Notes under the pieces: model-generated
Databases searched by the model: none
Told to the model about the DNA's origin: nothing
The model's input: the letters and a program-made list of their open reading frames with translations, nothing else
Assembly: GCA_041178545.1 (NCBI GenBank)
Contig: JBEGVB010000009.1
Span: 33,276-97,275, forward strand
Direction: 5' to 3'
Source of the DNA: Planctomycetota bacterium
GTDB taxonomy: Bacteria; Planctomycetota; UBA1135; UBA2386
DNA length: 64,000 bases
Shown here: positions 11,644-18,475 of the stretch, in pieces
How the letters are laid out: every line of letters begins with the position of its first letter
How positions within the stretch are numbered: position 1 is the stretch's first letter
Made by a program: the position numbers and the translations under genes

Positions 11644-11663
11644 GCCCGCCTACGCGGGCGGGC
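11644..11663. terminator. GC hairpin between convergent glnN and MFS genes (no U tract)
   Basis: GCCCGCC-TACGCG-GGCGGGC, 7-bp stem, overlapping the TAG stop of the MFS gene. Confidence 0.25.
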
Positions 11664-13032
11664 CCTGCCGACGCCGGGCCAGGAGCCGCTGCACCTGCTG
11701 CTGCTTGGCAGGCCCGAACCGGTGGCACCACAGGATGATGCCGGCGGACAGGAAGAAGGCGCCGACCACCGGTCCGAAGAGCAGCGCGATCGCCAGCTTG
11801 GTGCCCTCCGTCTGCGCCTCGTTGGGCACGAATCCAGCCTGCGCGAGTGCCCAGCCAGCGACCCACATGGCAGAGGCGCGCGACAGCTTGGAGGCAAAGC
11901 GCCACATTCCGAAGTAGCTGCCGGCGCGGTCGGTGCGCGTGTGCAGCAGGTCGAGGTCGATGACATCGGTGAGCGTGGAGTCGATCAGCGCGATCGAACC
12001 GACGAAGAAGCCGAGCCCGACGGCGCCGACCACCAGCGGCAGCGCGAAGTTGCCCTCGGGCAGCAGCGGGTAGACCACGGCCGTTGCGACGCCCAGCACC
12101 ACTGCGCCGACCACCGTGGGCATCTTCTTGCCGCGCCGTTTCGACAGCCCGATCCACACGGGCAGTGAGATCGTGAACGTCAGCAGGAACACGGCCAGCA
12201 TCGTCTGCACCTGGCCGTCGGACAGGCCGAGACGGTGGTCGTAGTAGTAGAGCGCCGTGATGCCGTTGATGCCGATGCCTGCCGTCGCGACGACGTAGGC
12301 GATGAGCAGCCAGCGGAAGGCTGGGTTGGCGAGGGTCGCCACGAGGTTTGTCACGATTGCCCCGCTGGGCGGCGGGGCATCCAGTCGCGGCATGTGGCGC
12401 GTGGACCACCACGCGACCAGGGCGCCGACCCCGACGGTGGCTGCGATGCCCAGGCTCGTGGGGCCCATGGCGTCGACGATGCGTGCGTCGGAGCCGACCA
12501 GTGCCGCTGGTGCCGCGACGGCGAGCACGGCACCGAGGTTTGCGGCGGCGAAGCGCCACCCGAACAGCACGCTGCGCTGGTGCGGGTCGGGCGTCATCTC
12601 GTTGACCATCGCCGTGTAGGGGACGGCCAGCACGGTGATGCCGGAGTTCAGCAGGGCGTAGGCACCGAGCAGCCACAGGAACTTGGCGTCCTGCCCCTCG
12701 AGGTCCGGCGGTTGGAACAGCAGCAGCAGGCCGAGTCCCAGCACCAGTGCGCCAGGGAGCAGCCAGAACCTGCGGCCGCCGAAGCGGTGGCGCGTACGGT
12801 CGGAGACCACTCCCATCACGGTGTCGAGGACCGCGTCCCACAGCAGGCCCAGTGCAGTGGCAAGGCCTGCGAGACCGGGGTCCAGGCCGACCCGGTCGGT
12901 GTAGTACACGAGCGTGTAGAGCCGCAACGCGGTCTCGACTGCGTTCAGGCCGACCTCGGCACTCGCGTAGCCGGCGGAGACGGCGGGGGACAGGCGCCCA
13001 CTCTGTGCTGGTACCGGTCCTGGGCGACTCAC
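11650..13032 (-). CDS. MFS transporter, glycoside-pentoside-hexuronide (GPH/MelB-like) family
   Basis: 460 aa, GTG start, 12 predicted hydrophobic segments. N-terminal GYASAEVGLNAVE...YYTD..GL and DAVLDTVMGVVSDRTRHRFGGRRFW resemble the GPH signature. Confidence 0.8.
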   Translation of the reverse strand: MSRPGPVPAQSGRLSPAVSAGYASAEVGLNAVETALRLYTLVYYTDRVGLDPGLAGLATALGLLWDAVLDTVMGVVSDRTRHRFGGRRFWLLPGALVLGLGLLLLFQPPDLEGQDAKFLWLLGAYALLNSGITVLAVPYTAMVNEMTPDPHQRSVLFGWRFAAANLGAVLAVAAPAALVGSDARIVDAMGPTSLGIAATVGVGALVAWWSTRHMPRLDAPPPSGAIVTNLVATLANPAFRWLLIAYVVATAGIGINGITALYYYDHRLGLSDGQVQTMLAVFLLTFTISLPVWIGLSKRRGKKMPTVVGAVVLGVATAVVYPLLPEGNFALPLVVGAVGLGFFVGSIALIDSTLTDVIDLDLLHTRTDRAGSYFGMWRFASKLSRASAMWVAGWALAQAGFVPNEAQTEGTKLAIALLFGPVVGAFFLSAGIILWCHRFGPAKQQQVQRLLARRRQGPPA

Positions 13033-13061: not shown

Positions 13062-13838
13062 TCAGCCGAAGCGTCCCTCGATGTAGTCGGCGGTCTCCTG
13101 CTTCTTCGGCGCCACGAACATGTCCTCGGTGGCCGTGTGCTCGACCACGCGGCCCATCAGCATGAACACGCACTCGTCGCTCGCACGCCGGGCCTGCGCC
13201 ATGTTGTGGGTGACGATGAGGATCGTGTAGTTGCCACGGAGGCGCCAGACCAGGTCCTCGACGGCAGCGGTCGCCTCGGGGTCGAGGGCCGAGCACGGCT
13301 CGTCCATGAGCAGCAGCGACGGCTTCACCGGCAGCAGTCTCGCGATGCACAGTTTCTGCTGTTCCTCGAGGGAGATCTCGGTCGCCTTGCGGTGCAGGCG
13401 GTCCTTCACCCGGTCCCAGAGCAACACCTCGCGGAGGCTCTCCTCGACCAGCCGGTCCTCCTCTGCACGCGAGACGCCGGTCTCGCGGTGCAGGCGGTGG
13501 CCGAACAGCACGTTGTCGCGGATCGAGAGCGGCAGCGGGTTGGGGCGCTGGAACACCATGCCGATGTTCTTGCGCACCTGGATGCGCGAGATGTCGGGGC
13601 CGTAGATGTCCTCGCCGAACACCCGGATCGTCCCCGTGGTGGACACGTACCCGAGACGCTCGTTGATGCGGTTGACGCTGCGCAGCAACGTCGACTTGCC
13701 ACAGCCCGAGGGCCCGATGAGCGCGGTCACCTTGCCACGCGCGATGCGGAGGTCGACCTCGTAAAGGGCCTGGAACTTGCCGTACCAGAGGTTGAGGTCG
13801 CGGACCTCGACCGCACAGTCCACCATGGTCTCAGCCAA
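13062..13838 (-). CDS. pstB: phosphate ABC transporter ATPase PstB (consensus Walker A/Q/B/H, degenerate signature ISLEEQ)
   Basis: 258 aa. GPSGCGKSTLLR, MVFQRPNP, LLLMDEPCSALDP, VTHNMAQA and C-terminal DYIEGRFG as in PstB. The signature motif reads ISLEEQQKLCIAR. Confidence 0.9.
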   Translation of the reverse strand: MAETMVDCAVEVRDLNLWYGKFQALYEVDLRIARGKVTALIGPSGCGKSTLLRSVNRINERLGYVSTTGTIRVFGEDIYGPDISRIQVRKNIGMVFQRPNPLPLSIRDNVLFGHRLHRETGVSRAEEDRLVEESLREVLLWDRVKDRLHRKATEISLEEQQKLCIARLLPVKPSLLLMDEPCSALDPEATAAVEDLVWRLRGNYTILIVTHNMAQARRASDECVFMLMGRVVEHTATEDMFVAPKKQETADYIEGRFG

Positions 13839-14610
13839 AGCGTCCCTCCAGGTAGTCGCGGGTCTTGGGGTGCTGGGTGCGGCCTGCGAACAGGTCCTCG
13901 GTGGGGGTGATCTCGACGCACTTCCCGGCCAGGAAGAACGCAGTGCGGTCGGCGAGGCGGCGCGCCTGCTGGACCAGGTTGGTCACCAGCACGATGGTCA
14001 TCTCCTCGCGCAGCTGCTTGAGGACCTCCTCGATGCGCATGGTGGTCACGGGGTCGACCGCGATCGAGAACTCGTCGAGGAGCAGCACCTCGGGGTCCTG
14101 GCTCAGTGCGCGTGCGATCGTGAGGCGCTGTTGCTGCCCGCCGGAGAGCAGGCTGCCGAGGCTCGTGAGCCGGTCCTTGACCTCGTCCCACAGGGCGGCG
14201 CGGCGCAGGCAGCGCTCGACGACCACGTCCAGCTCTGCCCTGCGGTGGATGCCACGCAGCCGCGGCGACAGTGCGACGTTGTCGTAGACCGACAATGGCA
14301 GGCCCACCGGCAGCGGGAACACCACGCCGATCAGGCGGCGCAACGCGTACACGTTGCGGATGTCGCGCAGGTTGCGCCCCGCGAACTCGAGGCTGCCGTC
14401 CACGACCATGCCGGGCGTGAGCAGGTCCATGCGGTTGAGGGCGCGCAGGAAGCTCGTCTTGCCCGAGTTCGCCGGGCCGATGATGCCGAAGATCTCGTTG
14501 CGCCGCACCTCGAGGTCCACGCCGCTGAGCGCGACCTTGCCGCGATAGCTGATCGCGAGGTCCTTGACTCGGATCTGTGGGGTACCGGTCGTCGCGGGGG
14601 GGGTCACCAC
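13831..14610 (-). CDS. PstB-like ATPase, second copy (consensus LSGGQ, degenerate Q-loop and H-loop)
   Basis: GTG at 14610 overlaps the pstA stop (GTGGTGA) and follows GGAGGAAGAA. 259 aa. GPANSGKT, VVFPLPVG (no Gln), LSGGQQQRLTIAR, LLLDEFSIAVDP, VTNLVQQA (no His), DYLEGRFG. Confidence 0.85.
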   Translation of the reverse strand: MVTPPATTGTPQIRVKDLAISYRGKVALSGVDLEVRRNEIFGIIGPANSGKTSFLRALNRMDLLTPGMVVDGSLEFAGRNLRDIRNVYALRRLIGVVFPLPVGLPLSVYDNVALSPRLRGIHRRAELDVVVERCLRRAALWDEVKDRLTSLGSLLSGGQQQRLTIARALSQDPEVLLLDEFSIAVDPVTTMRIEEVLKQLREEMTIVLVTNLVQQARRLADRTAFFLAGKCVEITPTEDLFAGRTQHPKTRDYLEGRFG

Positions 14611-15491
14611 TTCTTCCTCCTGCGCAGGTACATGCGGAAACCGATGGCGACCGAGTTGAGTGCCAGCACCACGAGGATCAGTGCGAGCGCGACGGCAAAG
14701 GGCAGTTCCCTCGGCACGCCGCTGATCTGCGTGGTGATGTTGTAGAGGTGCAGCGAGAGCACCATCGTCTTGTCGAAGACGCTCTCCGGCAGCACGCTGA
14801 TCATCACCGCGGCACCCGTGAACATGATGGGTGCCGTCTCGCCGACGCAGCGGCAGACCGCGAGGATGATGCCGGTGAGGATGCCGCTGCCGGAGTTGGG
14901 CAGCACCACGTGCCAGATGGTCTGCCAACGGGTCGCACCCATGCTCCAGCACGCCGCCCGGAACGACACGGGCACGGACTGCAGCGACTCGCGGGTTGCC
15001 ACGATCACCACGGGCAGGGTCATCACGGCGAGGGTGCAGCTGGCAGCCAGGATCGAGGCCCCGAACTTGAGGAAGTGGACGAAGGCACCGACGCCGAACA
15101 GTGCGTGGACGATCGAGGGCACGCCGGCGAGGTTGACGATGGCCGTCTGGATGGTGCGGGTCAGCCAGTTGTCGCGGGCGTACTCGTTGAGGTAGATGGC
15201 TGCGGCGACCCCGAGCGGCACGGCCAGCAGGAGGGACCCTGCGACCAGCCAGAGCGTGCCCACGAGCGCGGGGAAGATGCCGCCCGCGCGCATGCTGTTG
15301 CGCGGGAACTGGGTGAAGAACTCCGTCGACAGTGCGGGCCAGCCCTCGACGGCCAGCACGGCGAGGATCACCAGCACCGGCACGACCAGCACGAGGGTCA
15401 TGAACAGGGCGAGGACAGCGACCAGCTTCTGGGCGGTGAGGGCCTGCTGCTCGCGTGCCGTGGCGAGGAAGTGCGAAGGTGCGGGGGTCAC
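14604..15491 (-). CDS. pstA: phosphate ABC transporter permease PstA
   Basis: GTG at 15491 overlaps the pstC stop (AAGTGA). 295 aa. MGATRWQTIWHVVLPNSGSGILTG...GETAPIM is typical of PstA. Confidence 0.85.
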   Translation of the reverse strand: MTPAPSHFLATAREQQALTAQKLVAVLALFMTLVLVVPVLVILAVLAVEGWPALSTEFFTQFPRNSMRAGGIFPALVGTLWLVAGSLLLAVPLGVAAAIYLNEYARDNWLTRTIQTAIVNLAGVPSIVHALFGVGAFVHFLKFGASILAASCTLAVMTLPVVIVATRESLQSVPVSFRAACWSMGATRWQTIWHVVLPNSGSGILTGIILAVCRCVGETAPIMFTGAAVMISVLPESVFDKTMVLSLHLYNITTQISGVPRELPFAVALALILVVLALNSVAIGFRMYLRRRKKW

Positions 15492-16420
15492 TTGGCCTGC
15501 CTCCTGCCGCGCACGATGAGGTCCGCGGTGAAGTTGACGGCAAAGGTGATGACGAACAGCAGCACGCCCAGGACGAAGAGGGCCTGGTAGTGGTCGGAGC
15601 CATTCGCGGTCTCGCCCAACTCCGCGGCGATCGTCGCCGTGATGGTGCGCACCGGGTCGAACACGGACTCGGGGATGCGGATGCTGTGGCCCGAGGCCAT
15701 CAGCACGGCCATCGTCTCGCCGAACGCGCGGCCGATGCCCAGCAGGACCGCGGCGCTGAGGCCGGGGCGTGCGTGTGGCAGCACGACGCGCCACACCACC
15801 TGCCACCGCGTGGCACCCAGTGCCTCAGCTGCCTCGCGGTAGCTCTCGGGCACCGACTTGAGGGCGTCCTCGGCGATCGTGGTCATGATCGGCGCGGACA
15901 TCAGGCCGAGGATGAGGCCGGCGTTGAGGGCGTTGATGCCGACACCGGACTCGGGCTCGAAGACGTCGACGATCCATGGGCTGACCACCTGGAGGCCGAT
16001 GAATCCCCACACGACGGAAGGCACTGCAGCCAGCAGCTCGATGAGCACCTTGAGCCACTCGCGGGTCCGTCCCTTGGCGAACTCGCCCACGTAGACGGCG
16101 GCTCCGAGCGAGAACGGGACCGACACGAGCATGGCGAGTGCCGTCACCGTTGCGGTGCCGACGATCAGTGCCAGTGCGCCGTAGGTGGGGGGCTTGGCCG
16201 TCGGGCGCCATGCCGAGGACTGGAAGAACTCGGCCCAGTCGAGGCGGTTGAGAGCGAAGTCGAGTCCCTCGGTGGCGATGAACGCCAGGATGCCGAGGAG
16301 GAACACGATGGCGGAGATGCCGCCCGCGAACACGAGGATGCGCGCCGCGAGGTCCGCGTACCACGCGCTGTCCCGGTGGTCGAGGGCGTGCGTCGCCCGG
16401 TTGCCCTGCGGCACCGTCAT
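15488..16420 (-). CDS. pstC: phosphate ABC transporter permease PstC
   Basis: 310 aa. EAAEALGATRWQVVWRVVLPHARPGL...GRAFGETMAV. The start overlaps the phoU stop by 1 nt. Confidence 0.9.
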   Translation of the reverse strand: MTVPQGNRATHALDHRDSAWYADLAARILVFAGGISAIVFLLGILAFIATEGLDFALNRLDWAEFFQSSAWRPTAKPPTYGALALIVGTATVTALAMLVSVPFSLGAAVYVGEFAKGRTREWLKVLIELLAAVPSVVWGFIGLQVVSPWIVDVFEPESGVGINALNAGLILGLMSAPIMTTIAEDALKSVPESYREAAEALGATRWQVVWRVVLPHARPGLSAAVLLGIGRAFGETMAVLMASGHSIRIPESVFDPVRTITATIAAELGETANGSDHYQALFVLGVLLFVITFAVNFTADLIVRGRRQAK

Positions 16421-17484
16421 CAGTTGGCCGCCTCGCCGCGGAGCACTTCCATCAGTTCACGGATGCGGGGCGCGAGTGCGCGGTAGGCGGACTCCGGGTC
16501 CTGCTGCGCGCCGAGGTCCCAGTTCACCACCGTGGTGTGGAACGGGATCCGGGGCAGGTGCTGCCAGGCGTCCTTGCCCAGCGCGACGACCACGTGGAAG
16601 TCGTCGAGCGTCTCGGTCAGTGAGGCGAGCGGGGCGGGCCAGGCCGCAGCGAGGTCCAGGCCGGTCTGGCGCGCGAAGTCCGCGTACCTGCGGTCCACCT
16701 CCTCGGCGGCGTTCCACCCGGCGCTGCGGTAGCGGCCGCTGTTGGGGAACGCCTTGCGGGTGAAGTGCTCGGCAAGCTGGCTGGCGCCGTCGTTGCGCTC
16801 GTCGACGAAGAGGATCTGGAAGACCTTCTCGCCCTTGGACTGGCCGGTGACGACGAAGATCGTCTCCTCGCAGATGTTCTTGGCCTGGTGGATCACGCGC
16901 TCGAGACGGTTGAAGGTCGCGAGGAACCCGAACAGGTCCGAGGAGGGGCGCGAGTGCGTGTCACCCTCCTGGGCCAGGTCGCTGAAGACCTTGTCGTAGA
17001 GGTGTGCGAATTGGTTCGCCGCCGTCAGGGTCGCACGTGCGAGGTTCGCGTCGCGCCCCAGGAAGCTCCGCACCGAGTCGTGCAGCATCCTCCGGCCATG
17101 CTCCAGCATCATCTCGATGTCCCGTGCCACGACGGCAGGGGGCTGGGTCGACAGCTGCACGGCCGTGCGCGAGATCGTCGCCGTGTAGTCGCCGATGCGT
17201 TCCATCGCCACGCTCAGCCGCAGCACCGCCGACACGAACCGCAGGTGTCCTGCGCTGGGCAGGTGGCGCGCGACGAAGGCATGGATCAGGCGGTCGATCT
17301 CACGCGTCTGGCGGTTGACGACGTAGTCGCCGAGGATCGTGGTGCCCGCGAGGTTGCGGTCGCATTGCAGCACCGCGTGCACCGAGTTGGAGAGCGCTTC
17401 CTCGATGCCCTGGCCGACCGTCCGGATGAGGTCGGAGATCCAGTTGAGGTCCTTCTGGAGACGTTCTTCGTACTGGGGCGCCAC
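16420..17484 (-). CDS. phoU: PhoU-domain protein fused to a degenerate LMW-phosphatase/ArsC-like domain
   Basis: 354 aa. Residues 1-~215 carry two PhoU repeats (ERIGDYATNI-like AMERIGDYTATI and LERVIHQAKNICEE). Residues ~221-350 align to the LMW-PTP/ArsC fold, but the P-loop reads VDERNDGAS instead of CxxxxxR(S/T). Confidence 0.85.
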   Translation of the reverse strand: MAPQYEERLQKDLNWISDLIRTVGQGIEEALSNSVHAVLQCDRNLAGTTILGDYVVNRQTREIDRLIHAFVARHLPSAGHLRFVSAVLRLSVAMERIGDYTATISRTAVQLSTQPPAVVARDIEMMLEHGRRMLHDSVRSFLGRDANLARATLTAANQFAHLYDKVFSDLAQEGDTHSRPSSDLFGFLATFNRLERVIHQAKNICEETIFVVTGQSKGEKVFQILFVDERNDGASQLAEHFTRKAFPNSGRYRSAGWNAAEEVDRRYADFARQTGLDLAAAWPAPLASLTETLDDFHVVVALGKDAWQHLPRIPFHTTVVNWDLGAQQDPESAYRALAPRIRELMEVLRGEAAN

Positions 17485-17555: not shown

Positions 17556-18419
17556 TCAGAGCTTCCGCACCGGTGGGTAGCCTGCGCGCTGGAGCACGCG
17601 CTGGCCGTCATCGCTCAGGATCCAGTCGAGGTATGCCTTGACTGGTCCCTGGGGCTCGCCAGACGTGTACATGAAGAGCGGGCGGGCGATGGGGTAGGTC
17701 TTGTCGATCGTGTTCTCGATCGTCGCGGCCACCGGGCGTTCGCCGGCGGCCTTGGCCACGGGCACCAGCTTCACCTCGGGCGTTGCGTATGCGATGCCGC
17801 AGTAGCCGATGGCCGAGGGCGTGTTGGCCACGAGTTCGACCACGTCCTTGGAGCCGTTGAGGTCGTAGGTGCCGAGCCGGAAGTCCTTCTTGTGGAGGAC
17901 GGCTTCCTTGAAGTACTCGTAGGTGCCCGAGTTGTTCTGGCGGCTCACCACCAGGATCTCGTCGCGGGCGCCGGGGGGCAGCTTGACACCCAGCTCCGAC
18001 CAGCGGGTGACCTTGCCACCGTCGGCGTAGATGCCCTCCAGTTGGTCGATCGTGATCGACTCGATGGGGTTGTCCTTGTGGACGTACACGCCGATGGCGT
18101 CGAAGCCGACCACGAACTCGCGCGGCTCGGCGCCGCGCTTGGCCGCGGCCTCCCGTTCCTTCTTTGCCATCTCACGGCTGCTGTTGGCGAGGTCGACGGT
18201 GCCGTTGATCAGGGCGGCGATGCCGCGGCCCGAACCGCCGCCGTTCACGGCAACCATGATGTCGGGCCGCACCGCAGAGAACTGCTCGCACCACGCGAGG
18301 GCCACCTCCAGCATGGTGTCGGAGCCCTCGTTGTTGACCACGAGGTGGTTGTCCCGGCTGCACCCGAGGGTGCCGAGGCAGGCGGCAAGCAGCGCCAGCG
18401 TGAAGGGGCGGATGGGCAC
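17556..18419 (-). CDS. pstS: phosphate-binding protein PstS (PBP_like_2)
   Basis: GTG at 18419 gives VPIRPFTLALLAACLGTLGC signal/lipobox-like N-terminus. NGGGSGRGIAALINGTVDLANSSREM and GYCGIAY are typical of PstS. Start uncertain. The upstream part of ORF 17556..18680 was rejected. Confidence 0.8.
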   Translation of the reverse strand: MPIRPFTLALLAACLGTLGCSRDNHLVVNNEGSDTMLEVALAWCEQFSAVRPDIMVAVNGGGSGRGIAALINGTVDLANSSREMAKKEREAAAKRGAEPREFVVGFDAIGVYVHKDNPIESITIDQLEGIYADGGKVTRWSELGVKLPPGARDEILVVSRQNNSGTYEYFKEAVLHKKDFRLGTYDLNGSKDVVELVANTPSAIGYCGIAYATPEVKLVPVAKAAGERPVAATIENTIDKTYPIARPLFMYTSGEPQGPVKAYLDWILSDDGQRVLQRAGYPPVRKL

Positions 18420-18457
18420 GGCGTGAAGAGGAAACCCGGGACCACGGGAAAGTTCCC

Positions 18458-18475
18458 GTGAAGATTTGGTGAAGA
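18458..18475 (-). promoter_or_regulatory. candidate Pho box: direct repeats TCTTCAC-CAAA-TCTTCAC (11-bp period), third copy at 18423-18429
   Basis: Read on the minus strand immediately upstream of pstS. The repeats overlap an 18-bp inverted repeat CACGGGAA-AG-TTCCCGTG (18443-18460). Confidence 0.35.

Follow-up and report, generated by a model that had tools for sequence, protein, structure and literature searches.

Two adjacent genes close a phosphate-specific transport (pst) operon in a 64,000-nucleotide stretch of DNA from a Planctomycetota bacterium (assembly GCA_041178545.1, contig JBEGVB010000009.1; the whole of this stretch, with a G+C content of about 70%, is referred to here as the window). 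They encode two different members of the PstB family of ATP-binding cassette (ABC) subunits, called here B1 (pstB1) and B2 (pstB2), whose nucleotide-binding motifs are altered in a complementary manner. From this pattern we consider it likely that PstB1 and PstB2 form a heterodimer, of whose two adenosine triphosphate (ATP) sites one is consensus and the other degenerate, within a single PstS-PstC-PstA importer.

The motif columns were set by a phmmer alignment of both proteins to Escherichia coli PstB (PDB 9k3x_C), which runs without gaps through all the motifs. Among solved structures E. coli PstB, in the PstSCAB cryo-electron microscopy entries of 2026, is the best match of both, B2 reaching E = 8.8e-74 and B1 E = 5e-58; B2 is 50–55% identical to it over 251 residues, as estimated by eye from the alignment, and the identity between B1 and B2 is 41%. 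B2 departs from the canonical motifs only in the signature: its Walker A is that of E. coli PstB, the Q-loop (VFQRP), the Walker B and D-loop (LLMDEPCSALD) and the H-loop are canonical, and the signature reads ISLEEQQK where E. coli has LSGGQQQR, that is, Leu-Glu in place of Gly-Gly and Lys in place of Arg. B1, on the other hand, has the LSGGQQQR intact, and has lost the Gln of the Q-loop, replaced by Pro (VFPLPVGLP for VFQKP, also with Pro to Gly and Phe to Leu), and the His of the H-loop, replaced by Asn (VTNLV for VTHNM, also with Asn to Leu). The altered signature of B2, the intact one of B1 and the loss of its Q-loop Gln and H-loop His had been read in a first-pass annotation of the window; in both the profile and the structure-anchored alignments ISLEE occupies the signature column, and Pro and Asn the columns of the Gln and the His. 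The same annotation held that B1 keeps Walker A and Walker B, which is correct for the Lys, the Asp and the Glu; in B1 the fourth Gly of Walker A, typical of ABC proteins and invariant among the canonical PstBs compared here, is replaced by Asn, the motif fitting only the general P-loop pattern GxxxxGK[ST], and the Pro that follows the catalytic Glu is Phe. With the D-loop, which reads SIAVD where E. coli PstB has CSALD (Ser to Ile), the divergence of B1 is wider than had been listed.

In an ABC dimer, each ATP site is formed by the Walker A, Walker B, Q-loop and H-loop of one subunit and the signature of its partner, both in general (PMC7756269) and in E. coli PstB (PMC12976172), and the LSGGQ signature contacts the gamma-phosphate of ATP (PMC7756269). 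When the motif columns are set on this head-to-tail geometry, the intact motifs fall in one composite site and the altered motifs of both subunits converge on the other, as the first-pass annotation had proposed, with the exception of the D-loop, which lies at the centre of the dimer. The consensus site (site 1) would be composed of the Walker A, Walker B, Q-loop and H-loop of B2 and the LSGGQ of B1, and would be the normal catalytic site that powers the switch between the inward and outward forms; the role of B1, with its own nucleotide-binding side altered, would be to donate the intact LSGGQQQR to it. The other (site 2), made up of the GPA[NQ]xGKT, Q-loop Pro and H-loop Asn of B1 and the L-x-L-E-x of B2, would not form a normal hydrolytic sandwich. 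It would probably still bind nucleotide, since B1 keeps the A-loop Tyr, the Walker A Lys and the Walker B Asp-Glu, hydrolysing it slowly or not at all, with a structural or allosteric role like that in heterodimeric exporters. We infer, then, a catalytic asymmetry, and with one catalytic site approximately one ATP would be hydrolysed per cycle. The heterodimer would be obligatory, because neither homodimer has a complete site: that of B1 would lack the Gln and the His in both of its sites, and that of B2 would lack the signature glycines in both.

TIGR00972 (PstB) is the best NCBIfam match of both proteins, from end to end (model positions 2–248 of 248), with scores of 319.7 bits for B2 and 272.3 bits for B1 that do not reach its curated equivalog cut-off of 343.2 bits. 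Because of this, and because the full set of consensus ABC motifs is found in neither subunit (B1 is without the Q-loop Gln, the H-loop His, the fourth Gly of Walker A and the D-loop Ser, and B2 without the two signature glycines), they are not PstB equivalogs in the sense of TIGR00972; B1 and B2 are PstB-family paralogues outside its trusted range. The fold of B1 is closest to that of solved PstB: its AlphaFold model (mean predicted local distance difference test, pLDDT, of 88.2) has as its top PDB matches 9k3x_C and 9k3s_C, both E. coli PstB, with template modelling (TM) scores of 0.90/0.95 and a root-mean-square deviation of 1.5 Å, and is poorly defined internally only at the altered Q-loop (residues 100–102) and the D-loop block.

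The altered residues are shared by the relatives of both proteins. The best 120 database homologues of each were collected by whole-protein similarity (240 in total). Among those of B2 (78–99% identity) GPSGCGKS and MVFQRP are present in all, the signature SLE[EQ]QQKL in 120 of 120, and VTHNM in 118, the other two being unmatched by the search pattern; among those of B1 (74–100% identity) VFPLP, LSGGQQQRL, L-DEFSIA[VI]D and VTNLV are each found in 120 of 120. The two lists, which are independent, share contigs of the same size (for example, 700,437, 397,915, 21,882 and 14,184 bases), and most of the B2 homologues begin with M-A-[DE], as encoded by the ATGGCTGA overlap with a preceding “...G-stop”.

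At the level of genomes, one genome per GTDB species was scanned with the back-translated D-loop of B1 (DEFSIA[VI]DP), giving at least 120 matches, and tblastn with the window proteins on the matched loci, in blocks of 8 kb, found at least 119 B1-type genes; the counts that follow hold among the matches listed. A B2-type gene lies directly downstream in 112 of the 119, or 112 of the 113 that are testable, six others being cut by the end of the block. The remaining one, L090 (5833–6675), was a candidate for a solitary B1 and was rejected: its 3′ end is replaced by unrelated sequence after “...QETKD”, on a contig with 3.7x coverage of a Magnetococcales metagenome-assembled genome, and it is treated as a rearrangement or a chimera. 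The two-copy arrangement and its substitutions are repeated in related genomes, and the order pstC-pstA-B1-B2 is essentially universal. By the record titles, the loci span more than 12 phyla: Planctomycetota, including the complete genome of Saltatorellus ferox Poly30; Verrucomicrobiota (Limisphaera, Prosthecobacter, Roseibacillus); Acidobacteriota, Gemmatimonadota and Poribacteria; Myxococcota, Bdellovibrionota and other “Deltaproteobacteria”; Binatia, Nitrospirales, Rhodothermales, Fibrobacter, KSB1 and Magnetococcales; and many Gamma- and Betaproteobacteria (Accumulibacter, Chromatiaceae, Sedimenticolaceae, Thiodiazotropha, Lysobacterales). The same D-loop pattern also gave one viral match, a chance one, in a phage contig without an ABC gene.

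As the Walker B and D-loop columns of B1 were the search key, their invariance across these loci is by construction and not independent evidence. Outside the key, the B1 columns show the Q-loop Pro and the H-loop Asn in 86 of 86, LSGGQQQR in 116 of 117, the Walker A Lys in 86 of 86 and the A-loop Tyr in 85 of 86, the fourth column of Walker A being divided among Asn (53), Gln (23) and Gly (8); in B2 the signature Leu is found in 86 of 86 and the Glu in 84 of 86, and all 86 keep Gln in the Q-loop and His in the H-loop. If a position is called class-specific when it is at least 85% conserved in its clade and differs from a canonical consensus of at least 80%, B1 has 16 such positions and B2 has 8, most of them in or beside the ATP-site motifs: in B1 the Walker A, the Q-loop, the Cys after the signature, the position following Walker B, the D-loop and the H-loop, and in B2 the signature. 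A few are outside these motifs; in E. coli numbering they include 195 and 219 (B1) and 137 and 222 (B2). The first-pass annotation had spoken of motif decay, and this is the part of it that has to be abandoned: since the substituted residues are essentially invariant across the family, in 240 homologues and at least 119 loci, the motifs of B1 and B2 are fixed alternatives under strong constraint, in other words, an ancient design and not a decay in this genome.

Five Poribacteria loci (L005, L028, L078, L106 and L112) have a third PstB-like gene beside a plain phoU, downstream of B1 and B2, in which the Q-loop Gln is Arg, Pro or Gly, the H-loop reads T-N-K-R and the signature LSIGQQQ[LR] or LSNGQQQR; with changes in all three motifs, this gene is non-canonical on both faces.

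A neighbour-joining tree was built with 86 B1/B2 pairs, 37 further sequences from the search of representative proteins described below (27 of them canonical PstBs and the rest with altered motifs) and E. coli PstB. The B1 sequences form one clade and the B2 sequences another, with a mean pairwise identity of 64% within B1 and 66% within B2, and the two partners of a locus are 38.5% identical, which is below the identity of either to canonical PstB (43% and 47%). The pairwise distances within the B1 set and those within the set of B2 partners are correlated (r = 0.86; 3655 pairs). This co-variation, as indirect evidence, together with the single pstC/pstA pair and the adjacency of the two genes at nearly every testable locus, suggests that they heterodimerise on one transmembrane pair.

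A search of 1.84 billion representative proteins, whose matches were otherwise many fragments and canonical PstBs, also contained a sister class of each. That of B1 has GPAGxGKT, VFA[TV]P, LSGGQQQR, LLDEP and VTNNx, and in that of B2 the signature is, for example, LSAEQQQR or LTEEQQQR; looking these sister proteins up by cluster yielded no taxonomic assignment. Both are found together in L122 (GCA_031372565.1, 5001–6550), with the order pstS-pstC-pstA-B1′-B2′ and an overlap of 4 nucleotides between B1′ (GPAGGGKT, VFATP, LSGGQQQR, LLDEPTSGLD, VTNNL) and B2′ (signature LPLEQQQR, with VFQRP and VTHNM). Because this sister lineage repeats the design, the complementary arrangement is old and has been preserved as one unit; the high identity of, for example, Gammaproteobacterial and Planctomycete copies (about 72%) suggests transfer of the operon across phyla as well.

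In the window the operon lies on the minus strand in the order pstS, a PhoU fusion, pstC, pstA, pstB1 and pstB2 (Table 1). The three genes of the importer lie directly upstream of B1 and B2 and exceed the cut-offs of their models; for PstS these are TIGR02136 (226 bits, cut-off 206.6), with 150 bits for Pfam PBP_like_2, and the signal peptide ends in LGTLGC, the lipobox and the start having been read off the sequence. The genes are tightly joined: the PhoU fusion and pstC overlap by 1 nucleotide, pstC and pstA by 4 (GTGA), the pstA stop and the B1 start by 7 (GTGGTGA), with AGGAGG 5 nucleotides upstream, and the B1 stop and the B2 start by 8 (TTGGCTGA), with GGAGG upstream, these last two overlaps being as annotated before. 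AGGAGG or GGAGG precedes the starts of pstA, B1 and B2. Because start and stop codons overlap and are accompanied by Shine-Dalgarno sites, B1 and B2 are translationally coupled paralogues closing the operon. There is no further PstB-like gene within the 64 kb of the window.

Table 1. Genes of the pst operon, and ATP-site motifs of its two PstB-type subunits, by position in the window.
Feature	Position	Strand	Remark
pstS, periplasmic phosphate-binding lipoprotein	17556..18419	-	GTG start at 18419
PhoU with C-terminal low-molecular-weight protein tyrosine phosphatase (LMW-PTP)/ArsC-like domain	16420..17484	-	Pfam PhoU 80 bits
pstC, permease	15488..16420	-	TIGR02138 289 bits, above cut-off of 196
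pstA, permease	14604..15491	-	TIGR00974 264 bits, above cut-off of 193; GTG start
pstB1, PstB1-type ATPase subunit	13831..14610	-	259 amino acids; GTG start
B1 Walker A	14455..14478	-	GPANSGKT
B1 Q-loop	14296..14322	-	VFPLPVGLP
B1 ABC signature	14125..14148	-	LSGGQQQR
B1 Walker B and D-loop	14053..14085	-	LLLDEF-SIAVD
B1 H-loop	13972..13986	-	VTNLV
pstB2, PstB2-type ATPase subunit	13062..13838	-	258 amino acids; TTG start
B2 Walker A	13692..13715	-	GPSGCGKS
B2 signature	13353..13376	-	ISLEEQQK
B2 H-loop	13200..13214	-	VTHNM

Downstream, a gene for a symporter of the MFS_2/GPH family (11650–13032, minus strand, Pfam 242 bits) begins 30 nucleotides past the B2 stop. Upstream of pstS there are direct repeats of CTTCAC at 18474–18469 and 18463–18458, 11 nucleotides apart, with a third at 18428–18423 (minus strand), and these repeats (18423–18474) resemble the direct-repeat units of PHO boxes. 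The region ahead of the pstS start (18419) yielded no sigma-70-like promoter, and a scan of the operon found no promoters or terminators, being uninformative at 70% G+C.

Sequence of this operon is present in 20 metagenome runs, from freshwater, riverine, drinking-water and soil environments, and in one riverine metatranscriptome, in which RNA contigs lie on B2 (13083–13334), on B1 (13931–14171), on the pstA/B1 junction, on pstC and on the PhoU fusion. These contigs, from one metatranscriptome and non-quantitative, fit a co-transcription of the operon. A contig of one DNA run (X1) joins 13313, in the Walker B of B2, to 14171, in B1 upstream of the signature, skipping 857 nucleotides; with 29 nucleotides on its shorter side, this joint is probably an artefact of the assembly graph and was discarded.

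Several points weigh against a heterodimer with a single catalytic site. Most degenerate sites of exporters have lost the catalytic Glu (PMC7756269), and B1 keeps it; a change of the H-loop His to Asn was tolerated in the second nucleotide-binding domain (NBD2) of MRP1 (PMC7756269), so that site 2 might retain some turnover. The metatranscriptome contigs may contain DNA. Finally, in two Gammaproteobacterial loci (L038, 4504–7458, and L066, 3–2672) a second, canonical pstC-pstA-pstB set lies within a few kb of B1 and B2, the PstB of which reads LSGGQQQR, VFQKP and VTHNM, which implies that the two designs can coexist.

Among the alternatives, the one that survives best, although we regard it as unlikely, is that site 2 has been repurposed as a regulatory pocket, which would gate uptake or signal to the Pho system, possibly with the PhoU fusion. 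The ligand could be adenosine diphosphate (ADP), another nucleotide or a phosphate-status signal, and the pocket would be lined by Pro98, Gly102, Phe180, Ile182, Asn210 and Leu211 of B1 and Leu156, Glu157 and Lys161 of B2 (E. coli numbering). The invariance of the substituted residues, most of them without exception in the 86 pairs, goes beyond what is expected of relaxed selection on a dead site; it would be explained equally well, however, by the structural needs of a site permanently bound to ATP. A full-length fusion of PhoU with an LMWPc domain lies upstream of pstC in 34 of the 55 related loci with room for it, and an interaction of PhoU with PstB in E. coli is reported in a reference cited in PMC12976172; in the other 21 of the 55, on the contrary, the fusion is absent within 1.4 kb upstream of pstC. 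For the LMWPc domain the window copy reaches 20.7 bits, which is under the gathering score, and homologues exceed that score with 42, 46 and 28 bits. In homologues (for example, L022, L047 and L058) its P-loop reads (I/V)LF(V/L)D..N.C.SQ, the nucleophilic Cys of CX5R(S/T) having become Asp, and in the window copy (ILFVDERNDGASQ) it is degenerate, with the second Cys and the Arg lost too. The fused domain has the appearance of a pseudo-phosphatase and may be a module that binds phosphate or arsenate. If site 2 were such a regulatory pocket, the motor of the transporter would itself sense cytoplasmic phosphate, and would do so in many environmental phyla.

It is less probable still that both sites hydrolyse, the substitutions compensating one another (Glu157 of B2, for example, replacing the role of the Gln or the His), at a cost of two ATP per cycle. 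The Walker A Lys, Walker B Asp-Glu and A-loop Tyr kept by B1, and the tolerance of MRP1 to the same His to Asn change, speak for this possibility. To our knowledge, however, there is no active ABC site that lacks the signature glycines, the Q-loop Gln and the H-loop His together. A non-canonical signature, moreover, is a recurring mark of degenerate sites with impaired hydrolysis (review PMC7756269).

That a homodimer of B2 alone would drive transport, B1 being accessory or dispensable, as proposed for Enterococcus faecalis, where PstB2 is needed and a surplus of it substitutes for PstB1 (PMC12096839), seems very improbable, as the Leu-Glu signature would then stand in both sites, and B1 is as well conserved as B2 and virtually never found apart from it. 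As for a recent decay of the motifs, the pseudogenisation of a redundant duplicate, or an artefact of sequencing or assembly, it has almost no chance of being correct, nothing other than the non-consensus motifs themselves speaking for it, and it was rejected on the conservation in the best-120 homologue sets and the genomic loci: both open reading frames are intact, identical substitutions recur across more than 12 phyla, in independent sequences that number in the hundreds, and the region is covered by the 20 independent metagenome runs.

Degenerate ATP sites have been studied mainly in exporters. The heterodimer proposed here would offer a widespread, natural type I importer with separate NBDs, that is, a simple system in which to ask what a degenerate site does in an importer, and whether high-affinity phosphate uptake costs one or two ATP. 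The pair is present in groups of ecological or technical importance, such as Planctomycetota, Verrucomicrobiota, Acidobacteriota, Gemmatimonadota and Poribacteria, and in the polyphosphate accumulator Accumulibacter (loci L006, L074 and L101). At present B1 and B2 are named only generically, because both fall below the curated PstB cut-off; separate family models for the B1 and B2 types would set the pair apart from homodimeric PstB.

The closest solved relative, E. coli PstB (PDB 9k3s, 9k3x, 9k3y), shares with B1 and B2 the fold, the length, the pstS, pstC and pstA partners, one NBD for each permease subunit, and the C-terminal Y-x-x-G-R-[FY]-G. The difference is that the E. coli transporter, the textbook case of homodimeric PstB (PstSCAB; PMC12976172), has two identical subunits and two consensus sites, whereas here there are two paralogues with complementary substitutions. 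The first-pass annotation had set the pair against canonical Pst systems, which would use a PstB homodimer; this contrast holds for E. coli, but PstB of two different subunits was already known in Firmicutes (PMC12096839, PMC11466899). There, the tandem pstB1/pstB2 of E. faecalis (PMC12096839) and PstBA/PstBB of Bacillus subtilis (PMC11466899) are adjacent paralogues that end the pst operon, as B1 and B2 do, and PstBA/PstBB have been modelled as a heterodimeric pair of NBDs (PMC11466899). The Firmicutes tandems are described with canonical motifs, and in E. faecalis PstB2 alone can suffice (PMC12096839); B1 and B2 differ from them in their one degenerate site and their separate clades, the comparison with B. 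subtilis being by its published description only. The authors of PMC12096839 state that tandem pstB paralogues had not been compared before their work, and in open-access papers and bioRxiv full text no description of a degenerate-site PstB pair was found, which is not proof of absence. A PstB-family heterodimer that would work like the asymmetric exporters is what we infer from the comparison, and we did not find it described for Pst.

These exporters, among them TM287/288, TAP1/2, BmrCD, MRP1, CFTR and Pdr5 (review PMC7756269), have in common with B1 and B2 that the non-canonical residues of the two NBDs converge on one composite site, the other remaining consensus, and that both the H-loop and the signature are altered; the degenerate signature of Pdr5, LNVEQ (PMC7756269), even approaches the L[SQ]LE[EQ] of the B2 type. 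They differ in that their NBDs are fused to transmembrane domains and the degenerate site is usually without the Walker B Glu, whereas B1 and B2 are free NBD subunits of a type I, binding-protein-dependent importer in which the Glu is kept and the Q-loop Gln is lost. Among importers, sequence analysis predicts one degenerate ATP site in RbsA and NupO, which have fused NBDs (PMC11466899). These are sugar and nucleoside importers, with tandem NBDs in a single polypeptide, the second half of which has lost the Walker A Lys; unlike them, B1 and B2 are separate polypeptides, keep the Lys, and belong to a family whose substrate is phosphate.

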